NCBI GenBank assembly: GCA_951406725.2 | Contig: OX597831.1 | Location: forward strand, 49,786,001-49,850,000 | DNA length: 64,000 nt | Direction of reading: 5' to 3' | From: Octopus vulgaris | Lineage: Eukaryota | Shown: positions 14,261-62,265 of the stretch, piece after piece | How positions within the stretch are numbered: the first letter of the stretch is position 1 | Layout of the letters: each line of letters opens with the position of its first letter | Translations under genes and position numbers: made by a program | Notes under the pieces: generated by a model | Seen by the model: only the letters and a program-made list of their open reading frames with translations | Told to the model about the DNA's origin: nothing | The model's database searches: none

Positions 14261-14291
14261 AAATAAAAAGAACAACAACTCTCGCTTCAAA

Positions 14292-14630
14292 GGTTCGACA
14301 CCAACTGTCGCATCAACGGTCCGACACCAAATGTCACATCGACGGTAAGACGCCAAACGTCACATCAACAGTCCGACCTCAATTGTCGCATCAACGGCTC
14401 CACACTAATTGTCGCATCAACAGTACGACACCGACTGTCGCATCAATGGTCAGACGCCAACTGTCGCATCAACGAACCGACACCAACTGCCGCATCAACG
14501 GCTCCACAGTAATTGTCGAATCGACCGTCCGGCACAAACTGTTGCATCAAAGGTCAAACGCCAACTGTGTACCAACGGACCGACACCAACTGTCGCATCA
14601 ACGGACCGGTACCAACTGTCGCACCAAAGC
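14292..14630. repeat. 26-bp minisatellite, ~13 diverged units
   Basis: Consensus GACACCAACTGTCGCATCAACGGTCC. Confidence 0.9.
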
Positions 14631-14859: not shown

Positions 14860-15520
14860 TTATGTATACAGAGAGTGTGAGACCGAGACTGAGAAGGTGT
14901 GAGAGAGTGAGGGGGAGTTTATAGGATGCCATTTGGCTTCCATTTCTAGCTGCGGCGATGACAATGTAGTAGTTGTTTTTTATCGTTTCATACTAACTTA
15001 ATTAACGAGAGAGAAAGGGGTGGACACACCCACTAACACACTAACAACAGCACGTCACTGCAAAAACTAACCGTGGAGTCAAATTTTCTTTGAATGATGA
15101 ATATCTCCCGTCCCTTAAAAGAATATAGCTCCAAATTTGAGGACAACATATAGCTGAGTCTAAAGACCTTCCATGGCCAAGTTTGAACATAACTGGTTAA
15201 ATGGTTTTTGAGTGCATTGGTAACAGACAAACAAACAAGCAATTATATACATTGAGAGAGATTATATCTGACACCGAAATTTCGCTGGCATTTCAAAAGC
15301 CTGGCATGAATTTTACTAGCATATTTCAGAAAAATATAATTGTTTCTAATATTCCCTCAGTCGCTTATTGTAGACTTTAGACGCAATAGAAATATAAGGA
15401 AGATATTAGCCACTCCTTCCAACTCACACAAATCTACAATTGGAGTTTATGAACGCTGCACCCACACCGAAAAACAGCCTCAAGAGGAGTAAGCTCTGTT
15501 TATTTCGTTTAAAGTTAATC

Positions 15521-16640
15521 GCCATAGTAGTGTGGCTGTTTCATATTGCTACTAGTTTAACCCCAGGCAGATCTTCCGCCAGCTGGCTATGGGTGCAACA
15601 CTGCACTCTGTACTTACATATTGCCAGCAGGCAGATTAATATGGCGATTAACTGCTTGTTAGTATATTTACTACTCACATCTCGTATTGAGATTTTACAA
15701 CTAGCTATTTTGCTTACTACATATCAGTAACCGATGGTCGCCTTATTTACAATATATTGCTAGCTAGAGTAGACTCGGATCCTGCCACCGAATGAATACG
15801 AGAAACGATGGAAGGATGTGATGAGAAAGGTGGGTGTCATTAACCCAGCTTAATCATTGATGAAAGGAAAAGATAATTGCTGGGCCTTATAGGCTGCCGG
15901 GTTCGATCTTTTTGAACTTTTATTCATTTTCTTTCTCTGTTTTCGTTTTTTTTTTTAAAAGTTCTAGTTAAAGGTTAAAATTGATCGTTACATAAAATAT
16001 TTTTTAATAAAATTTTAAACTTAATGCTCATTCGATCTCATTTATCATTTTTGTATTTGTTTGTCTTGTAATGTCCTTGTCTATGTACGATCAGTTTGAT
16101 CATAATAAAGACTTTATCTTTCTGGTGACCTGATGTTCGCGCCTGAGGATGAGCAAACTAGCTCGAAAGCCAATCGGTCTCGTTATCCTGTCGTCAGCTG
16201 GAGGATGGTAGGGGTTCGCTCCCCTGCTGGCAATATATATATGTACAGGGTGCAGTGCTGAACCAATAACCAGCTGGTAGAAGATTGACCTGGAGTTAAA
16301 CTAGTAGTAACGTGGAACAGCTATATTAATGTGGCCATTATCTTTACTTGTTAGAATAGATATTACTCTCATCTCTTACTGAGATTCTACAACTAGCTAG
16401 CACCTACCATCCTCTAGGTCGAGTTAGTCAAGCAGTCCTGTCGTCTGCTGGATGATGGTAGTGAATCGCTCCTCTGCTGGCAATATATATGTACAGGGTG
16501 CAGTGCTGCGCCGATGATCATCTGACAGAAGATCTGCCTGGGGTTAAACTAGAAGTAACGAGGAACAGCCACTTTGATGTGGCGATTAACTTTATTTGTT
16601 AGTATACTTACTACACTCTCTTGAGATTTTACAACTACCT
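15521..16640. repeat. Rearranged repeat: 250-bp tandem pair plus an inverted partial copy (pLTR-like)
   Basis: 16187-16400 ~ 16437-16640; 15521-15631 is the reverse complement of 16223-16335; 15645-15706 is a direct copy of the unit end. Confidence 0.7.
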
Positions 16641-16750
16641 ACTTATATAATTATATATAATTATATATATATATATATATGTATGTGTATGTATATATAT
16701 ATACACATATATATATATATATATACATATACATACATACATGCATTCAT

Positions 16751-17669: not shown

Positions 17670-18417
17670 TGTCGATCCTATGATGAACACGTTTTTTTAT
17701 TATGATGTAATATGTAATATAATGACTCCTCAAATTAAAAAAATGCGTACGAAACAGCTGTAATGTATCCACACACTCTTTTTTAAAAGCTTTAATTTTT
17801 ACATAGAATCAAAAAGAGTCTCACAGAAAATATATTTGTGTATACATTCCGAAATTCACAAAATAAGTTTGAAATATATAACAGAAGTAGCAGACAAAAA
17901 GAGAAAAGAGTTCACGTAAGTTTTCCTTATAGGAGTAGCTTTAGTGAATAAATTTTTGTCTGCATGTTGCATATGTGTGTGCGTGTGTGAGTCTATGTGT
18001 ATAGGTGTGTGTGTGTGTGTGTGTATGTATCCTCAATGTGAGAAACATAGACATCATAGTTAGCTTCCGGGTTATCATTTTGAAGTAGTATTGATCTAAA
18101 ATGAATTAAATATTAAATATTATAAATAATAGATGAAAATCATTCAGGTTACATAGATTATATGTAGTGATACTCGCTTCCTCTGTTACCAGGAATAAAT
18201 AAGAAATCGAGTTACTGATTTCCACAAATGTTGAAACAAGATAGACCTGTAGTTCTGAATCTTTGTCTTCTGTAACGAAGCCAGATATGTACTTACAAGA
18301 TGCATGCCTTTATACCGTTTCTACGATTTCTGATATATATATGTGTGTGTGTGTGTGTGTATGCATTTATATATATTATATATATCTATATATACTATAT
18401 ATATATATATATGTATA

Positions 18418-19006
18418 ACGATAAATCTCAGAGCGAGTTATAAACAGTAGCGGTAACACATCGTGACGCATATTTGCCATTTGAATATGGCTAACCCCTA
18501 AGGGTGGATGCTACTGTAGTTTGTAGCCCCAGGAAGATACCTCCTCCAGCTGGCTATAGACACACTATCTGTGCCCTATCAGTATTTGTGAAGGGAAGTC
18601 ATCCTTCCCGTCTTCAACTTATGATACACACGGACTCGAGTTTCAAGGTGTTTACCTATCATCAGCGTGTGACAATCATAGTTGTCGACGAGAATTCAGT
18701 TTCCCTCACAAATACATATACTTTTTCCAGTGTCGATTGACACTGATATTGAAGAAGTGAAATCAAACAATGATAAATCTCAGAGCGAGTTATAAACAGT
18801 AGCGGTAACACATCTTGACGCATATTTGCCATTTGAATATGGCTAACCCCTAAACACCTTGAAACTCGAGTCCGTGTGTATCATAAGTTGAAGACGGGAA
18901 GGATGACTTCCCTTCACAAATACTGATAGGGCACAGATAGTGTGTCTATAGCCAGCTGGAGGAGGTATCTTCCTGGGGCTACAAACTACAGTAGCATCCA
19001 CCCTTA
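18418..19006 (-). mobile_element. Candidate retrozyme: 352-bp unit (1.24 copies) plus a 5'-inverted segment
   Basis: 18420-18501 repeats at 18772-18853; 18852-19006 is an inverted copy of ~18499-18653; homologous to 61148-61680. Confidence 0.85.
18627..18671 (-). ncRNA. Type I hammerhead ribozyme
   Basis: cacacg-CTGATGA-taggt aaac acctt-GAAAC-TCGA-GTC-cgtgtg; palindromic stem III ACTCGAGT; U.U at the first stem II pair. Confidence 0.85.
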
Positions 19007-19379: not shown

Positions 19380-20850
19380 CGTTGGACTATACATACTCCA
19401 CCAGCTCCAAATACATTTCCCTAACCTCAAGGGCGGCCTCTACAGAGATGACGCCTTGCTAGTTACCGAGAGCGTAAATAAATCTTCTTTAGAATGAGCT
19501 AGAAAAGATCTACACAAATATTTCTGTAGCCTAAACCTGTCTATTGCGTTTGAAAATTCTCGCAAAACTACTAACTTTTTAAACGTAACTTTAAACTTAG
19601 AAACCTACCAATACCACAAACCTAACGAATGCCTTAAATACCTAAACATTCATTCCAATCACCAAAAATCCACGTCTGATAACATAGTCAAGGGTACTGG
19701 ATCCGTATATCCGACCCCTCTTTCACTGAGGAAATATTCAATAATCACGCACCATATTACACCAAGCGCTCGCTGCCAGCGGCTTCTCCCAACAAATAAA
19801 ATACATCCCTAACATCAGGCTCAAACAACATATATCTCAAATCACATCACAACGACACACCAACCATCACAATCACAACAGACCTCATATACACTTTGCT
19901 AGAACCTAGGAAGGACAACCTAGACCCCACACGCACACAAATAACACTAGGTCAAAAGCTAAAACAACTAAAACAATTAACAACAACGGGTCATGCACCC
20001 CCTCCATTTTCCAAAACTATAGATAGCATTACCTCTAAGCACCTAAAATGTAGTGGACGCTTTTTTCTATGGTATACACCCCACTTCTCACTAAATGTTA
20101 AGGACTTAGCTAAATCCTTCTTTAATGTACTGGACTCCAACTTCCCTCGTCGTAATAAATATTACTCTATCTTTAATAGATACACCCTGAAGCTATCCTA
20201 TTCCACCCCAGCCAACTTCGAGTCTATCATAACAGCCCCTAATAAAGAAAACCTTTCCCTCTACTATCAAAACTCACACCATAGCAATTCTAAATACACG
20301 AGCGCCCGACATGTACACAGCTCCAGCATCGAGCCCCATATGTTAGACCACAACCCAACCCATCCTACTAACAACATCCAAAATAATACCACAACTTCCA
20401 CCACTCTTAGAGACAGAATAATTAACAACAATAGCACTAACAACAACAACAACAATAATAATAAAAATAATAATAAAAATAATAAAAATAAAAATGATAA
20501 AAATAAAAATAATAATAATGATAATAATAATAATCGTAATATTAATGATAATAATAATGATAATAATTATAATAATAATAATAATAATAACTATAATAAT
20601 AATAATAATAATAAAAATAATAACAATAATAATAATAATAATAATAATTATAATACTAACTTAGACTTTTCTATCCCCATCTCTAACCTATCCTCTGACA
20701 GTATTACCTCCTTCATTCCTGAAAGTAATGCCCAATATACACCCACTTGTAACTGCGGTCCTGGGTCCATCTGCACTCTACAAACCCATTGTAGAAGATC
20801 TAATATAATTTATAAATGCACCGTCCTCAACACATTACACAATTCTACAG

Positions 20851-20897
<47 letters not shown>

Positions 20898-21265
20898 ATC
20901 AACCATAAATTTTAAACAGTGATATGCCGCTCATCTCAATTCTTTTAGATACACGAAACACAGTAAATCCACAATAAAAACCAGTCACATACATCATCTT
21001 AAAAATAGAAATATTCCCTACACTTTGTCAAGATCCATGATAGACTCAGGGCTTCCATACCAAGGACAACGCTTAGACTGTAAGTTATGCCTTAATGAGG
21101 CATTCCACATATTAAACGCATATTAAAACACAACTCCTCAACGCTACTAAACAAATATTATGAGGCCCTAAGTACATGCAACCACCGCTATTTTCATACT
21201 TTCAAATTTCACCACAAATCTCAATGCAACCTAAATAATCACACAGTATATATCCACAACACTAC
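19380..21265 (+). pseudogene. Penelope-like retroelement 3' half (RT C-terminus, linker, GIY-YIG endonuclease)
   Basis: GLYRDDAL, NFLNVTLNL, KPNECLKYLNIHSNH, WYTPHFS..KLSYST, CNC..NIIYKCTV..YIG, CKLCLNE..CNHR; frameshifts and stops; (AAT)n in the linker. Confidence 0.85.
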
Positions 21266-21451
21266 TTAGGTAATTCCTCACCCAAACACTACTTATCTCC
21301 ATTTTAATTTTTAATCTTTAATTCACTCCCCTATCTAACTTTAAGTATCACAATCATTTAATACTACATATATGGACATACAAGCGGATATAGATGTGTG
21401 TGTAAATGTGTGTACAGGTATTTTATGTATGTATTTGTATGAGGGTGTATG

Positions 21452-22812: not shown

Positions 22813-22971
22813 TTATTTATTTATTTATTTCGAACTCAAATATTTTCTCACGCCGTCTCTGATGAAGGGATATCCATATTATATCCCAGAAACAACTGTA
22901 AGACTATTTCACTATAAATGTCCTAAAATCTCACAGCCTTGGCTTTGTTAACTCGCTCTGTCTAATAATTT

Positions 22972-23634: not shown

Positions 23635-23711
<77 letters not shown>

Positions 23712-23714
<3 letters not shown>

Positions 23715-25318
23715 TTGCGGCCAAAATGTTCAGAACGGCATTGTTTTCGTCAGAAAAGTAGGTATGAGTTTTTATTAAAGTTGTTTTATAAGCTATAATT
23801 TTCACAGACAATAAATACAATATTAATTGTTATTGTCTGAGATTTTGGTGTAATTTGAGAGGATTTAGTGATTTACTGCAAAACCCATGGCGGCCAAAAT
23901 GATCAGAACGGTTGAAAAAATAACAAAATAATCAAAAATGACAGAGAATACTGGAATTATTTAATATTTAGTGTGAAGCCCTTTAGCTTCAATCACACTC
24001 TGACATCTTCGACTGCATGAGGAAATTAAATTTTCAATTTCTTGCTGGATGATCTTATTCCATTCTTCCTGAAGGACATTCCATAATTGCTCAGTTGTTT
24101 TAGGATTTCTGACTTTCGAACGTTCTAGAATATTCCACACATTTTCAATAGGATTGAGATTTGGGCTTTGAGCTGGCCAATCCATAACAATAACCTTTTC
24201 AGCCTTGAGGAAGTTCACGACCACCTTAGCCTTGTGACATGGGGCATTGTCCTGCATGAATATGGGTGGTCGCTTAGTTGAATTTCTCAGCACAGGCAAG
24301 ACATGATCTTTTACAAGTTGTCTATAAACTCCTGCATTTAACTTTCCATGTAATCGCACCAAAGGGCTCACACAATCTCCAGATATCATTCCCCAAACCA
24401 TGACACTTCCTCCACCGAATTTAACACTAGTCTTAAGGCATTTAGGCAACAATTTTTCACCTACTTTTCTACGAACGTACCTTTTCCCATCTGAGCCTAA
24501 TAGCATAAACTTAGATTCATCACTGAAATGCACCGTTTGCCATTTTTCTTGAGACCACAACACATGTTCGGTTGCAAAGGTAAGACGACACTTTTTATTC
24601 TTGGAGCTGATCAGTAGCTTCACTATAGGTGCTCTTGCTTGTAGGTCATGTTCAACTAAACGACGAGACACAGTTTTTCGAGATAAAGTTTTCTTCAATA
24701 CAATGCTCATTTTCCGAGAAACAGCAGCAGCAGTTTTAAATCAGTCCTTTTTAACCAACTTTACCATAGCACGATCTTCTCTCTTGGTCGTTTTTCTTGG
24801 CCTACCTGTAAACTTTCTTGCTTCACACGAACCACAATCATCGTAGACCTTACGAATACCGTGTACAACACTTTTTGACTTGTTAACAATATTTGCAATA
24901 GATCCAATACTTAAATTATCCTTCCTTCGAAGCTTAATAATCTGCTGACGAATTGGTAACGGAGTAAGTGGCATTATATTAACAAAGTACACTGCAAATA
25001 TTCTTACTAATGTTTAGTAAACGAACCGTCACGTAAACAAATTCAAAACATTAGAGTTCGACGGTTAAATATACTAAAACACGGAGTTAAAGCAACCGTT
25101 CTATGATCATTTTGGCCGCCATGGGTTTTGCAGAAAATCACTAAATCATCCATAACTTTTGTATTATCCTCTCAAATTACAATAAAATCTCAGGCGATAA
25201 CAAATAATATCGTATTTGTTGTCTGTGAAAATTATAGAATATAAAACAACTTTGATAAAAAATTATATCTACTTTTCTGACGAAAACAATGCCGTTCTGA
25301 ACATTTTGGCCGCAACTA
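23712..25318 (-). mobile_element. Full-length Tc1 transposon with long IR/DR-type TIRs, inserted in (TA)n
   Basis: Termini CAGTTGCGGCCAAAATGTTCAGAACGG / CCGTTCTGAACATTTTGGCCGCAACT; inner direct repeat GCGGCCAAAATGATCAGAACGG ~180 bp inside each end. Confidence 0.95.
23961..24974 (-). pseudogene. Tc1 DD34E transposase (~337 codons) with one in-frame premature TGA at 24741-24743
   Basis: The two listed ORFs are in the same frame; GRPRK, FSDESK, QDNAPCH-34aa-E, WPAQSPNLNPIE. Confidence 0.92.
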
Positions 25319-25338
25319 TATATATATATATATATATA

Positions 25339-30090: not shown

Positions 30091-30107
30091 AAATTAACGC
30101 AAATTTG

Positions 30108-30520
30108 TACAAATGCACCATCCTCAACAATCTACACAATTCTACAACCGTATATATTGGATCAATTATAAATTTTAAACATCGATACGCTGCTCATCTC
30201 AATTATTTTTAATATGAGAAACAGAGTAAATCCACACCCTTCGCCCGTCACATACATCATCTCAAAAGTAAGAATAGTCCATATAATTTGTCATGGTCCA
30301 TAATAACATTAAGACTTCCATACCAGGATCAACGCTCATCCTGTAAGTTATGCCTAAAAGAGGCATTCTACATATTAAAACACAACTCTTCAGTACTACT
30401 AAATAAGTATGATGAGGCCCTAGCTACATGCAACCACCGCTTTTTTCATACCTTCAATTATTACCACAGATCTAAATGTAGCCTAAATCACCACACAGTA
30501 CATATACCGAACACCCCTTA
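30108..30520 (+). pseudogene. Second copy of the Penelope-like GIY-YIG 3' end (homologous to 20810-21260)
   Basis: YKCTILNNLHNSTTVYIGS..CKLCLKEAFYIL..LLNKYDEALATCNHR. Confidence 0.8.
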
Positions 30521-42306: not shown

Positions 42307-42586
42307 TGCGGTATATTAATACCACTTGTTAAAATCAGAACCACTGCTCCAAAAACCTCCATAAATATGTTGATAAAATACACACGAGCAATGCAATGAA
42401 TATTTAAAAAAATATGCGTGTCCTTGCTTTGAATACATAGATAAGTAATACATATTTCAATACCAATTGATTTTACGCTTTGCATGACAAACATTCTTTG
42501 CGATCTTCAGTTGAAAACATCATTTAACATCTATTTTAAAAATATTCGCTACGTTTGCTCGTGTGCGTTTCTAACTTTAAACGTCC

Positions 42587-43432
42587 GTATCCTTTCCTTT
42601 TGAACGGTACATGTCAACACAATTTCTAGTTAACTAAACACTTTTAAACTTCGTATACTGGTAGAATGTGTTTATAAAACATAATTTTTTCTTGGCTTTA
42701 TTGAGAAAATTCTATAGTTTGCAAGATATTTCGTCTGAAATTTCGAGCATTTAGGCAATTTTAACCAATCACCTACCTCCATTTGGGCTGAAAACATTCC
42801 GTGCTGTATGAATATGTCCCCCGTTTAAGAAACAGATTGGGTTTATTTACATTTGCGAAGAAAAACGATACCCTTCTCCCACCCCTAACCCTAAACCTAA
42901 CCCTAACCCTAATCCTAACCCTAACCCTAACTCCTACCCTAAATCTAAAATAGATTGAAATGCAATAGATCTATACTAGGGTTATAATTATGGGTGACAT
43001 TTTCATTTGACACCTCTAGAAAAAATCCCATTTTCCGTAGCGGTGTCGTATGAAATTATCACCCATAATTATAACACTAGTATCGATCTATTGCATTTCA
43101 ATCTATTTTAGATTTAGGGTTAGAGTTAGGGTTAGGGTGGGGGAAGGGTATCTTTTTTCTTCGCAAATGTAAACAAACCCAATCTGTTTCTTAAACGAGG
43201 AACATATTCATACAGCACGGAATGTTTTCACCCCAAACGGAGGTCAGCGATTGGTTAAAATTGCCGAAATGCTCGAAATTTCAGACGAAATATCTTGCAA
43301 ACTATAGAATTTTCTCAATAAAGCCAAGAAAAAATGATGTTTTATAAACACATTCTACCAGTATACGAAGTTTAAAAGTGTTTAGTTAACTAGAAATTGT
43401 GTTGACATGTGCCGTTGAAAAGGAAAAGATCC
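42587..43432. mobile_element. 846-bp foldback/MITE (almost entirely inverted repeat) with 8-bp TSD and internal (CCCTAA)n
   Basis: Arms ~42587-43018 / ~43037-43432; TSD aaacgtcc at 42579-42586 and 43433-43440. Confidence 0.9.
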
Positions 43433-43533
43433 AAACGTCCCGCTCCGTTTAAAAGAAACTATCGTAAACAACAAAATTCAAATAAGGTAGTATTATTGCC
43501 GTTATTTACAGTAATAATAAGGTGGCTAGCAAG

Positions 43534-44044: not shown

Positions 44045-44665
44045 GCTATAAACTAGCAGAAACGTTAACACGCCGGGCGAAATGCTTAGCAGTATTTCGT
44101 CTGCCGTTACGTTCTGAGTTCAAATTCCGCCGAGGTCGACTTTGCCTTTCATCCTTTCGGGGTCGATAAATTAATTACCAGTTACGCATTGGGGTCGATG
44201 TAATCGATTTAATCCGTTTGTCTGTCCTTGTTTGTACCCTCTGTGTTTAGCCCCTTGTGGGTAGTAAAGAAATAGAAATAGGTATTTCGTCTGCCGTTAC
44301 GTTCTGAGTTCAAATTCCGCCGAGGTCGACTTTGCCTTTCATCCTTTCGGGGTCGATTAATTAAGTACCAGTTATGCATTGGTGTCGATGTAATCGATTT
44401 AATCCGTTTGTCTTTCTTTGTTTGTCCCCTCTATGTGTAGCCCCTTGTGGGCAGTAAAGAAATAAGAAACGTTAACACACTGGGCGAAATGCTTAACGGT
44501 ATTTCGTCTGTCTTTACGTTCTGATTTCAAATTCCACCGAGATCGGCTTTGCATTTCATCCTTTCGGTGTCGATAAATTAAGTACCAGTAGCGTACTGCG
44601 GCCGAACTTTTCGACTGGCCCCCTTCCTCAAACTTTCGAGCCTTGCGCCTAGAGTAGGAAAGATT
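44045..44665 (+). mobile_element. Three tandem group C SINE copies
   Basis: gtatttcgtctg..gagttcaaattcc..tttcatcctttcgg at ~44092, 44282 and 44499. Confidence 0.9.
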
Positions 44666-60692: not shown

Positions 60693-61147
60693 TAGTTTCT
60701 CCTGCTGAACCACGCGATGAATATCATTGCGTCACCGTCGTCCATCTTCAGCATTACGAAAACAGCGGCGGCGACGATAACGATAGTGTTGTTGATGACG
60801 TTGATAATAACGATCAGGATTATCGTCATTAATTCTCCAATGCTGATATATCTTTATATCGTCCAGTATTTCGAAAGAATCGGCTTCAGAATACAGATGT
60901 AGACTTTCAGTACTTATAGGCGAAATTGTGATGGGAATTTTGCTGAGATTAAAAGACATCCTTCTTTATTTGTGTGTCAAAGAACCATAGCGGATTTTTG
61001 ACACCGGCATTTTAATTTTTCGTTTTAGTGGGTATGGTATAGTCGATTCTATCGATCACAGTATATGATTGGAGCTTAATTTATCTCTGGATATCCTTTT
61101 TGCTTATTTATATATATCCTTTTTGCTTATTTATATATATATAAATA

Positions 61148-61682
61148 CTCCTTCACAAAAACTGAGAGGACACAGATAGTGTGTCTCTAGCCAGCTGGAG
61201 GAGATATCTTCCTGGGGCTACAAACTACAGTAGCATCCACCCTTAGCGGTTAGCCATATTCAAATGGCAAATATGCGTCACGATGTGTTACCGCTACTGT
61301 TTATAACTCGCTCTGAGATTTATCATTGTTTGATTTCACTTTTTCAATATCAGTGTCAATCGACACTGGAAAAAGTATATGTATTTGTGAAGGGAGCTGA
61401 CTTCTCGTCGACAACCATGATTGTCACACGCTGATGAAAGGTAAACACCTTGAAACTCGGGTCCGTGTGTATCATGAGTTGAAGACGGGGAGGATGACTC
61501 CCCTTCACAAATACTGAGAGGACACAGATAGTGTGTCTATAGCCAGCTGGAGGAGATATCTTCCTGGGGCTACAAACTACAGTAGCATCCACCCTTAGGG
61601 GTTAGCCATATTCAAATGGCAAATATGCGTCACGATGTGTTACCGCTACTGTTTATAACTCGCTCTGAGATTTATCATTGTT
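61148..61682 (+). mobile_element. Candidate retrozyme: 352-bp unit, ~1.5 copies
   Basis: 61150-61329 repeats at 61502-61682; reverse-complement homolog of 18418-18853; ends in (TA)n. Confidence 0.85.
61425..61469 (+). ncRNA. Canonical type I hammerhead ribozyme
   Basis: cacacg-CTGATGA-aaggt aaac acctt-GAAAC-tcgg-GTC-cgtgtg; stem I extends to 61381/61514. Confidence 0.9.
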
Positions 61683-61920
61683 ATATATATATATATATAT
61701 AATCCAAGATTTTATTTTTGTACTTATGGGAGTTACTGTCTTCGGAGACGTATATTGTCGTTCATTTTTTGAAATGACGAGTAGACAGACAGCAGACGAC
61801 TGATGACGGGTCGACTTTGTGTTACTTGTCCTATTTTTTCCTCTTGTGGTTTATGTATTTAACTTATTTGTTTTCGTATTTCATGTTATTTACTGTTGGT
61901 GACGTCCTGTACTCATATAT

Positions 61921-61951
<31 letters not shown>

Positions 61952-62054
61952 GTATATACCGGAGTAAACACATAAATGTGAAACAAGATGGAAAAAAGAG
62001 TACTCAAATACCAGTGGTAGAGTAATATGCTTTATTTAAAGCAGCAGAAAATTC

Positions 62055-62108
62055 AACAAAATCTGTTACTCTGAGTTTCTCGTTGCCGTTCATCAGACAG
62101 TTTTTGTT
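62055..62108 (-). ncRNA. Minimal type I hammerhead (minus arm of palindrome)
   Basis: ctgt-CTGATGA-a cg gcaa cg a-GAAAC-tcaga-GTA-acag. Confidence 0.65.
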
Positions 62109-62116
62109 AGAATTCT

Positions 62117-62170
62117 AACAAAAACTGTCTGATGAACGGTAACGAGAAACTCAGAGTAACAGATTTTGTT
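62117..62170 (+). ncRNA. Minimal type I hammerhead (plus arm of palindrome)
   Basis: aacaaaa a ctgt-CTGATGA-a cg gtaa cg a-GAAAC-tcaga-GTA-acag a ttttgtt. Confidence 0.65.
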
Positions 62171-62189
62171 GAATTTTCTGCTGCTTTAA

Positions 62190-62265
<76 letters not shown>

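Follow-up and report, generated by a model that had tools for sequence, protein, structure and literature searches.

A non-coding 352-nt tandem unit with an extended type I hammerhead is probably a metazoan non-LTR retrozyme

Two insertions of a 352-nt tandem unit

The window (the whole 64,000-nt stretch of DNA analysed here, from contig OX597831.1 of Octopus vulgaris) is AT-rich and microsatellite-dense, and contains a Tc1-type transposase and several retroelement remnants. Insertion A (61150..61679, forward strand) consists of 1.5 head-to-tail copies of a 352-nt unit and carries one hammerhead. At a period of 352, the letters of insertion A agree at 167 of 170 positions, and its first and second repeats are identical at 175 of 178. 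The complete unit lies at 61328..61679 (+); its GC content is 43% and its longest Met-started ORF is 56 aa, and a GC content below 50% together with a lack of coding capacity is characteristic of retrozymes, as are units that repeat head to tail, measure 150-450 bp and carry a single type I hammerhead.

Insertion B is on the opposite strand. Its main part (18417..18853, reverse strand) is 437 nt long (1.24 units), carries a hammerhead at 18671-18627 and ends in TA-rich DNA; it is joined by an inverted 5' piece (18851..19006, +) that corresponds to unit positions 61442-61597 and spans the cleavage site. The units of copies A and B differ at 15 of 352 positions, and no ORF was found next to either copy within the window. 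Each insertion holds one complete hammerhead, to which B adds an inverted partial one; two consecutive units with complete ribozymes, which mark an active copy and not membership of the family, occur in neither. With two copies in 64 kb and a large family of contigs (described below), the unit is dispersed in many copies, as retrozymes are.

The predicted circular fold of the unit is branched and stable (−128.6 kcal/mol; z −6.9 for A against 60 shuffles, z −5.4 for B), in keeping with the self-paired circles predicted for retrozymes. The antisense strand folds equally well (z −7.0).

Several other features were observed in the window. A Tc1-type transposase frame of 259 aa (23961-24740, −; Pfam DDE_3 and HTH_Tnp_Tc3_2; best relatives 81% identical) lies within inverted arms at 23692-23864 and 25166-25338. 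A pair of 304-nt inverted arms, 94% complementary and 250 nt apart (42581-43438), adjoins (CCCTAA)n at 42883-42942, and a 164-nt near-perfect palindrome (98.8%; 62031-62194) adjoins a (TA)n run. There are also a minisatellite of about 14 copies of 26-nt units (14272-14627), a SINE-like 190-nt repeat in two tandem copies (44092-44469), the SINE-like repeats of the window being reminiscent of octopus genomes, and a CTGATGA..GAAA core-like match with a long hairpin and weak helices I and III (22859-22900, +), which is probably chance or a relic.

The unit carries a canonical type I hammerhead on one strand

A pattern scan located the type I hammerhead of copy A at 61425..61469 (+), with a predicted cut after C61463. 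Helix I has 6 bp (CACACG/CGUGUG, 61425-30/61464-69); it is followed by the core CUGAUGA (61431-37), helix II (61438-51, 4-5 bp), GAAA (61452-55) and then GUC, and helix III has 2 bp and a near-palindromic loop. The core elements CUGANGA, GAAA and NUH, the three helices and the open helix I are those of the canonical metazoan type I motif, for which the available text of PMC4209133 gives a helix I of 6 bp, a helix II of about 4 bp, a helix III of 1-2 bp and a palindromic loop; the helix lengths and the palindromic loop of the unit agree with this description. The same text states that the weak palindromic helix III of the motif is rescued by dimers, and the predicted self-duplex of loop III here has an energy of −10.3 kcal/mol in A and −12.1 kcal/mol in B. 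Copy B carries a perfect ACUCGAGU palindrome in loop III and U.U at 10.1/11.1, at the base of helix II, which is also a feature of HHR_Amex2 of axolotl (PMC7229834, available part). This pair is A-U in A and G-C in one subfamily; G10.1-C11.1 is usual, not obligatory. An internal loop (UGU/U) comes next after helix I, and loop 2 varies among contigs.

The Rfam model Hammerhead_1 (RF00163) matched over its full length (model 1-45) with 22.1 bits and E 0.0011 in a 76-nt search, below the gathering score of 34. Rfam at gathering gave 0 matches in the whole window, and a search of 1 kb at E ≤ 5 gave no ribozyme. The catalytic fold lies 6.3 kcal/mol above the MFE of the circle, and helix III has a pair probability of 0 in the predicted monomer. 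Among retrozyme dimers tested elsewhere, 1 of 9 cleaved, according to the available text of a preprint (10.64898/2026.07.22.740005).

No antisense hammerhead was found in A, and B has one core-like 7-mer on that strand, only 3 nt before GAAA, so the ribozyme in both polarities that characterises viroid-like replicons is absent from both copies. The preliminary description had expected a replicating structured circRNA. A circle is the expected product of the known class to which we compare the unit (PMC7229834, available part); replication from RNA to RNA is the portion of this expectation that found no support, for lack of the antisense hammerhead. The least probable of the explanations weighed here is that of a viroid-like circular RNA with RNA-to-RNA replication, for which the genomic copies would be by-products. 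Its size, its compact fold and its high sequence variety would suit such an RNA, and RNA-to-RNA steps have been raised as a possibility for retrozymes (PMC7229834 and PMC7761336, available parts). Besides the missing antisense hammerhead, the branched fold speaks against it, the variety is accounted for by thousands of DNA contigs with genomic flanks, and pattern scans of viral and metagenome contigs returned 0 and 0 matches.

The extended helix I has a stable predicted fold, and two copies give covariation at chance level

Below the ribozyme, four more helices are stacked at 61381..61514 (+), all where the preliminary description had placed them. This region folds at −63.9 kcal/mol (z −7.9), and none of 200 shuffles folded as well. 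The letter changes that the description had reported between the copies were also recovered: C61416/G61476 corresponds to A18680/T18620 of the forward strand in copy B, which is U-A in the sense of the element, and G61490 is A in copy B, which turns U61403-G into U-A in the next helix.

The use that had been made of these changes, as compensatory evidence for structure, did not survive a test against chance. One double change was observed (p = 0.12), and 5 broken pairs compared with 5.7 expected. The description had left out the pair-breaking differences: 6 of the 15 differences break pairs of the MFE fold, and 5 do so with the catalytic fold imposed. The 15 differences between A and B also offer 15 combinations that would turn one Watson-Crick pair into another, 3 of them in helices of 6 bp. 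The lone compensatory pair 61416/61476 is ordinary by itself; it is terminal, stands beside a bulged A and has a pair probability of 0.49 in copy B. CpG decay was considered as a cause of this change and rejected, since neither base is in a CpG.

The null result of the two-copy test and the equal folding of both strands would both be expected if the unit were a DNA-level inverted repeat, of a satellite or MITE-like repeat, with double changes owed to gene conversion or chance and the ribozyme a dead relic. We regard this explanation as highly improbable, on the family-level and insertion data given below.

A local hairpin, GGGGAG/CUCCCC, may form at 61487..61503 (+); it was identified post hoc and is mutually exclusive with the long stem. 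Its pair G61490-C61500 is A-U in copy B (G61490A, C61500T), a double change, and the distant relative described below has a hairpin at the matching place. In predicted folds of the cleaved monomer the hairpin dominates up to 260 nt, and the long stem prevails by 300 nt. A folding switch at this site is possible and is offered as a lead only, picked post hoc among the 15 possible combinations.

A predicted branched 3' domain ends at the shared insertion boundary

The 3' part of the unit (61540..61679, +) is predicted to form a branched domain with the helices TAGCC/GGCTA, GGAGGA/TCTTCC, ACAGTAGC/GCTACTGT and GCCAT/ATGGC and a TGAGATT motif; it ends at the insertion boundary shared by A and B. 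The gccat/atggc hairpin reported earlier is well predicted (pair probability 0.91-0.99). The reported gctac/gtagc pairing, read as a local hairpin (61569-61586, coordinates as interpreted), has a probability of 0.0 in both copies; if the long-range helix ACAGTAGC/GCTACTGT was meant, the pairing is upheld. Similarly, for the hairpin said to span the unit junction, the insertion end does lie in the ATCA/TGAT loop, and the outer ctgagatt/aatatcag arm is not predicted (0.0 in both copies). The places of the local gctac/gtagc hairpin and of this outer arm are taken by the rival helices TAGCC/GGCTA, ACAGTAGC/GCTACTGT and CAGTGTC/GACACTG (0.96-1.0 in copy A). The ATCA/TGAT junction helix itself is weak, with pair probabilities of 0.39-0.52 in A and 0.15-0.20 in B.

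Family-level variants spare predicted pairs and the catalytic core

The 352-nt stretch was present in 20 of 24 listed runs (9 studies, three organism labels). Contigs of four runs were aligned to one unit (61200-61551), and 3,619, 2,772, 1,729 and 97 contigs matched, counted as distinct contigs, not as copy number. The depth profile was set aside, since summed unitig depths do not give copy number. End-to-start joints at 352 nt were found in 11, 8, 8 and 2 contigs of the four runs, a signal that circles and tandem DNA would give alike.

The reference for testing the variants was copy A's fold, in which the catalytic core had been set by hand, and phylogeny and linkage were ignored; 39 of 69 rows entered the test, and 61247 C>G was dropped as the unit's own letter in the second repeat. 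The results showed that 9 of the 39 variants break pairs compared with 17.1 expected (p = 0.0017), which is fewer than chance, and that 19 fall at unpaired positions (12.9 expected, p = 0.03). One-sided changes that keep a pair were not enriched (5 of 39; 7.5 expected). Pairs changed on both sides numbered 3 against 0.74 expected (p = 0.03; 39 of 69 rows), namely 61354/61365, 61416/61476 and 61438/61451. In 3 of 4 runs, the two variants of 61354/61365 occur at the same depth. In run X15, which is putatively RNA but has genomic-looking flanks and was used for variant linkage only, one contig (depth 73.6) has both sides of 61354/61365 and of 61438/61451; judging from its total of 18 differences, 61416/61476 is likely changed on both sides in this contig as well. 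Further double changes were recognised by eye in GGGT/ACCC of helix II and in three 3' hairpins (GGAGGC/GCCTCC, GCCAC/GTGG and GTCCT/AGGAC), drawn from 24 of 456 loose ends and 12 of 44 joint letters.

Not all variation fits the fold. Summed depths were 66, 84, 81 and 83% for C61416T and 97, 87, 98 and 76% for G61476A, a mismatch in runs X1 and X5; copies with C.A at 61416/61476 may be common. The long stem is also disrupted by G61407A and by T61408G, and among 40 of the 69 variant rows neither has a matching change in its partner.

Six of the 45 ribozyme positions vary. Four of them belong to the 9 positions that tolerate change (p = 0.01), and the 10.1/11.1 pair accounts for the remaining two. 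Variation thus sits at N7, in loops II and III and in the 10.1/11.1 pair, and the core is spared (rows among 40 of 69), which argues against the ribozyme being a dead relic in a DNA-level repeat. The kept G.U pairs at 61404, 61506 and 61507 are strand-specific, and this also argues against conservation of an inverted repeat as DNA. The earlier claim of selection on RNA structure is supported, on grounds other than those first given: the sparing of pairs by family variants, the double changes and the covariation with the distant relative speak for it, and the comparison of two copies on which it had been founded is at chance level.

A distant relative in the window retains the 3' fold

A relaxed scan recovered five hammerhead-like cores in the window compared with 0.12 per shuffled window. 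One of them, at 16143-16179, belongs to a decayed distant relative of the unit (F2; 15510..16650, +) with an inverted piece (15510-15631) and a TA-rich 3' flank. Three F2 copies of the 3' domain (16186-16399, 16436-16641 and 15628-15710, +) were identified. Segments of F2 are collinear with the unit with scores of 52, 36 and 34 compared with shuffle maxima of 32; a fourth, with 27, is not significant. The last F2 copy ends about 12 nt past the TGAGATT motif. An apparent spacing of 690 nt (15628 to 16318) was also noted in F2.

In an alignment of six segments from the two lineages, the 3' fold of copy A is kept in 87.9% of 165 cells, compared with 34-42% when the fold is slid. The covariation score of the 3' domain alignment exceeded all 500 of 500 shuffles. 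Seven pairs have double changes, and 22 of 500 shuffles gave as many or more. One pair reads A-U, C-G or U-A depending on the alignment row. Agreement is incomplete: helix 6 fails in the six-segment alignment (60% paired), helix 4 is absent from F2, and RNAalifold recovered helices 1, 2 and 5 and missed helix 3. The predicted folding of the F2 segments does not exceed that of shuffles (z 0.27, −0.70, −1.24 and 0.09), a result that the DNA-level explanation would also predict. A covariance model (R1) recovered the segments on which it was trained, together with their repeats, and beyond these a single match at E 0.98; Rfam gave no ribozyme match on two decayed cores (that of F2 and the one at 28176-28142).

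Insertion anatomy is Penelope-like

Insertions A and B stop at a common unit position (61679/61327), before TA-rich DNA. Behind A, GTT still fits the unit and is followed by (TA)n (61680..61702), and the 5' flank (61091..61140) is a 23-bp tandem duplication with TA runs. No clean target-site duplication was found in the TA-rich flanks of the insertions; non-LTR retrozymes are characterised by the absence of an LTR, PBS or PPT, and by target-site duplications of >4 bp when present. Just before the 5' junction of A (61091-61149), a 7-nt piece matches the element, possibly a template jump.

The contigs gave similar end points. Loose ends behind 61327 (13, 8 and 1 contigs) run into AT-rich DNA, and so do those at a second end point, 61281/61284 (20, 17, 19 and 18 contigs). 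Both end points lie in or beside weak predicted hairpin loops (0.4-0.5). That the 3' ends are fixed while the 5' ends vary points to reverse transcription, and the ends of the element are not inverted repeats; both observations oppose a satellite or MITE-like repeat.

The inverted 5' piece of B is identical to its main part at 156 of 156 positions, and its outer end lies 3 nt from the template position where the main part starts. This geometry is the pattern of twin priming in L1 inversions. Together, the two parts of B need a template of 590 nt, or 1.7 units, that crosses the cleavage site twice. At 11 of 12 diagnostic sites, the repeats inside one insertion agree with each other on the allele of that insertion. 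The 590-nt span, the complete identity and the shared alleles fit one circle read for more than one round, and also a transcript that came from a homogeneous array and had not been cut.

Penelope-like elements are marked by partial tandems, 5' inversions and (TA)n targets (PMC8557442, available part), and the insertions have the partial tandem, the inverted 5' piece and the microsatellite target of Penelope-like pseudo-LTRs. Three Penelope-like remnants were assigned in the window by tblastn and motifs. The largest is a broken Hydra-like element (19381..21203, +) with an RT, a CxCX5C linker and, C-terminally, a GIY-YIG domain, which is not part of the unit; expansions of (AAT)n and (TA)n split its sequence. 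The CxCX5C linker, (TA)n targets and hammerheads are described for the Hydra clade (PMC8557442, available part). An endonuclease remnant lies at 28665-28348 (−), and about 170 nt past it are a decayed hammerhead-like core (28176-28142, −) and then TA/CA repeats. A second Hydra-like endonuclease remnant (30105..30485, +) shares 78% identity with that near 20900-21270. The Penelope-like fragments had no Pfam match, and among 7 relatives Pfam gave GIY-YIG for 2, both below the cut-off. Searches with Penelope fragments likewise returned no matches.

These neighbours bear on whether an autonomous Penelope-like element has the unit as its pseudo-LTR (3' module), with copies that are 5'-truncated and a fold that serves the parent RNA, so that no free circle is needed. 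We consider this unlikely. The Penelope-like anatomy of the insertions is in its favour, as are the homology of retrozymes and pLTRs in Xenopus (preprint 10.64898/2026.07.22.740005, available text), the hammerhead-like core that follows one Penelope-like remnant in the window, and about 340 extra nt of uncertain origin in F2 (15740-16085), upstream of its hammerhead-like core. However, tblastn with 150 endonuclease relatives gave no match at 15-16 kb, and neither copy of the unit adjoins an ORF. What lies upstream of the full unit is another copy of the unit, and in contigs the end of one unit runs into the start of the next at 352. No significant similarity to the unit was seen in the tails of the three Penelope-like remnants (an equal score was reached by 18, 181 and 10 of 200 shuffles), and within the window the unit was not found adjoining or homologous to the end of an RT-GIY-YIG element. 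The dissimilar tails leave the Hydra-like elements as no more than candidate helpers.

Discussion

We conclude, with a probability of about 0.78, that the 352-nt unit is a metazoan non-LTR retrozyme, non-coding and multi-copy, whose type I hammerhead has an extended helix I and which is predicted to be copied by a Penelope-like RT into (TA)n. As in the metazoan non-LTR retrozymes of PMC7229834 (available part), there is a type I hammerhead in a tandem, non-coding unit with GC below 50% and a compact predicted circle, and the reported sizes of 350-390 bp in mussel and 330 and 350 bp in axolotl (Cervera and de la Pena 2020, PMC7229834, available part) bracket its length. Unlike the metazoan retrozymes studied, the unit has an extended helix I of about 50 bp; it is further set apart from known retrozymes by 3' entry points that are fixed and precede (TA)n, by a 5' inversion and by a 3' domain that is conserved. 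A and B hold one complete ribozyme each.

The relation to pseudo-LTR hammerheads of Penelope-like elements in the Hydra clade (PMC4209133; PMC8557442; available parts) is close in the type I hammerhead, the partial tandems, the inverted 5'-truncated piece and the (TA)n targets, whereas the unit has no ORF and its motif, with helix III and a helix II of 4-5 bp, is canonical and not minimal. The pLTR-derived retrozymes of vertebrates (Li, Clavereau, Pollet 2026, 10.64898/2026.07.22.740005, available text) likewise co-occur with Penelope-like elements and mix monomers with short tandems, but no parent pLTR was found here within the window. By the definition of 'active retrozyme' in the available text of that preprint, neither A nor B is one. 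Hammerhead viroid-like replicons share the size class, the hammerhead and the stable circular fold; unlike them, the unit has its ribozyme on one strand only and is DNA-encoded and dispersed by retrotransposition-like insertions.

Reading the unit as a retrozyme, we propose that longer transcripts would be cut and circularised, after which a Penelope-like reverse transcriptase would return copies to (TA)n DNA. Array transcripts quite probably self-cleave after C61463, probably as dimers via the palindromic loop III, and the long stem would juxtapose the 5'-OH and cyclic-phosphate ends of the monomer for a host ligase. We lean slightly towards the circle, rather than an uncut multimer, as the template, which would be read for more than one round from a fixed entry near 61679 (in other subfamilies near 61633-61636). 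A (TA)n-targeting Penelope-like element is a reasonably likely helper, and the Hydra-like ones would be the local candidates; for retrozymes in general, the available text of PMC7761336 reports no conserved motif that points to a helper. Structure would be conserved because only well-folded source copies spread, and inserted copies like A and B would then decay neutrally. Selection on retrotransposition-competent source copies explains the covariation, which thus needs no RNA replication.

A more specific proposal, which we put forward tentatively and consider rather doubtful, is that 61540-61679, which ends a few bases past TGAGATT in a hairpin loop that is the end point of independent insertions, is a cis signal that docks a Hydra-type Penelope RT on the circular RNA for rolling-circle, target-primed copying into (TA)n, and that the hairpin at 61487-61503 acts as a switch by which the cut monomer is released to close the long stem for ligation.

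In the literature available to us in full text, with subscription papers and key supplements mostly outside its scope, no report of an octopus retrozyme was found. Within the same scope there was no prior account of fixed entry points of this kind, of twin priming with hammerhead and Penelope-like sequences, or of retrozyme insertion into microsatellites, where the one match was a plant paper. Octopus is not among the hosts studied in PMC7229834, according to its main text, and the 35 genomes of preprint 10.64898/2026.07.22.740005 include, in its available text, four invertebrates (three insects and one coral) and no mollusc. The main text and supplement of the Octopus vulgaris repeat paper PMC13282606, as far as available, mention no ribozyme, retrozyme or hammerhead. 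In the giant squid genome, 235 Hammerhead_1 matches have been reported (PMC6962438, available part).

Animal retrozymes are known, and their mobilisation is still a model. The window offers three handles on it, namely a fixed 3' entry point, an inversion with identical parts that crosses the ribozyme junction twice, and a 3' domain kept in F2, and so opens both the helper and the circular-template model to testing. If the host is a cephalopod, the retrozyme class would be extended to cephalopods, and if the 3' domain is indeed an RT docking signal, it would supply the missing helper-recognition element of animal retrozymes.
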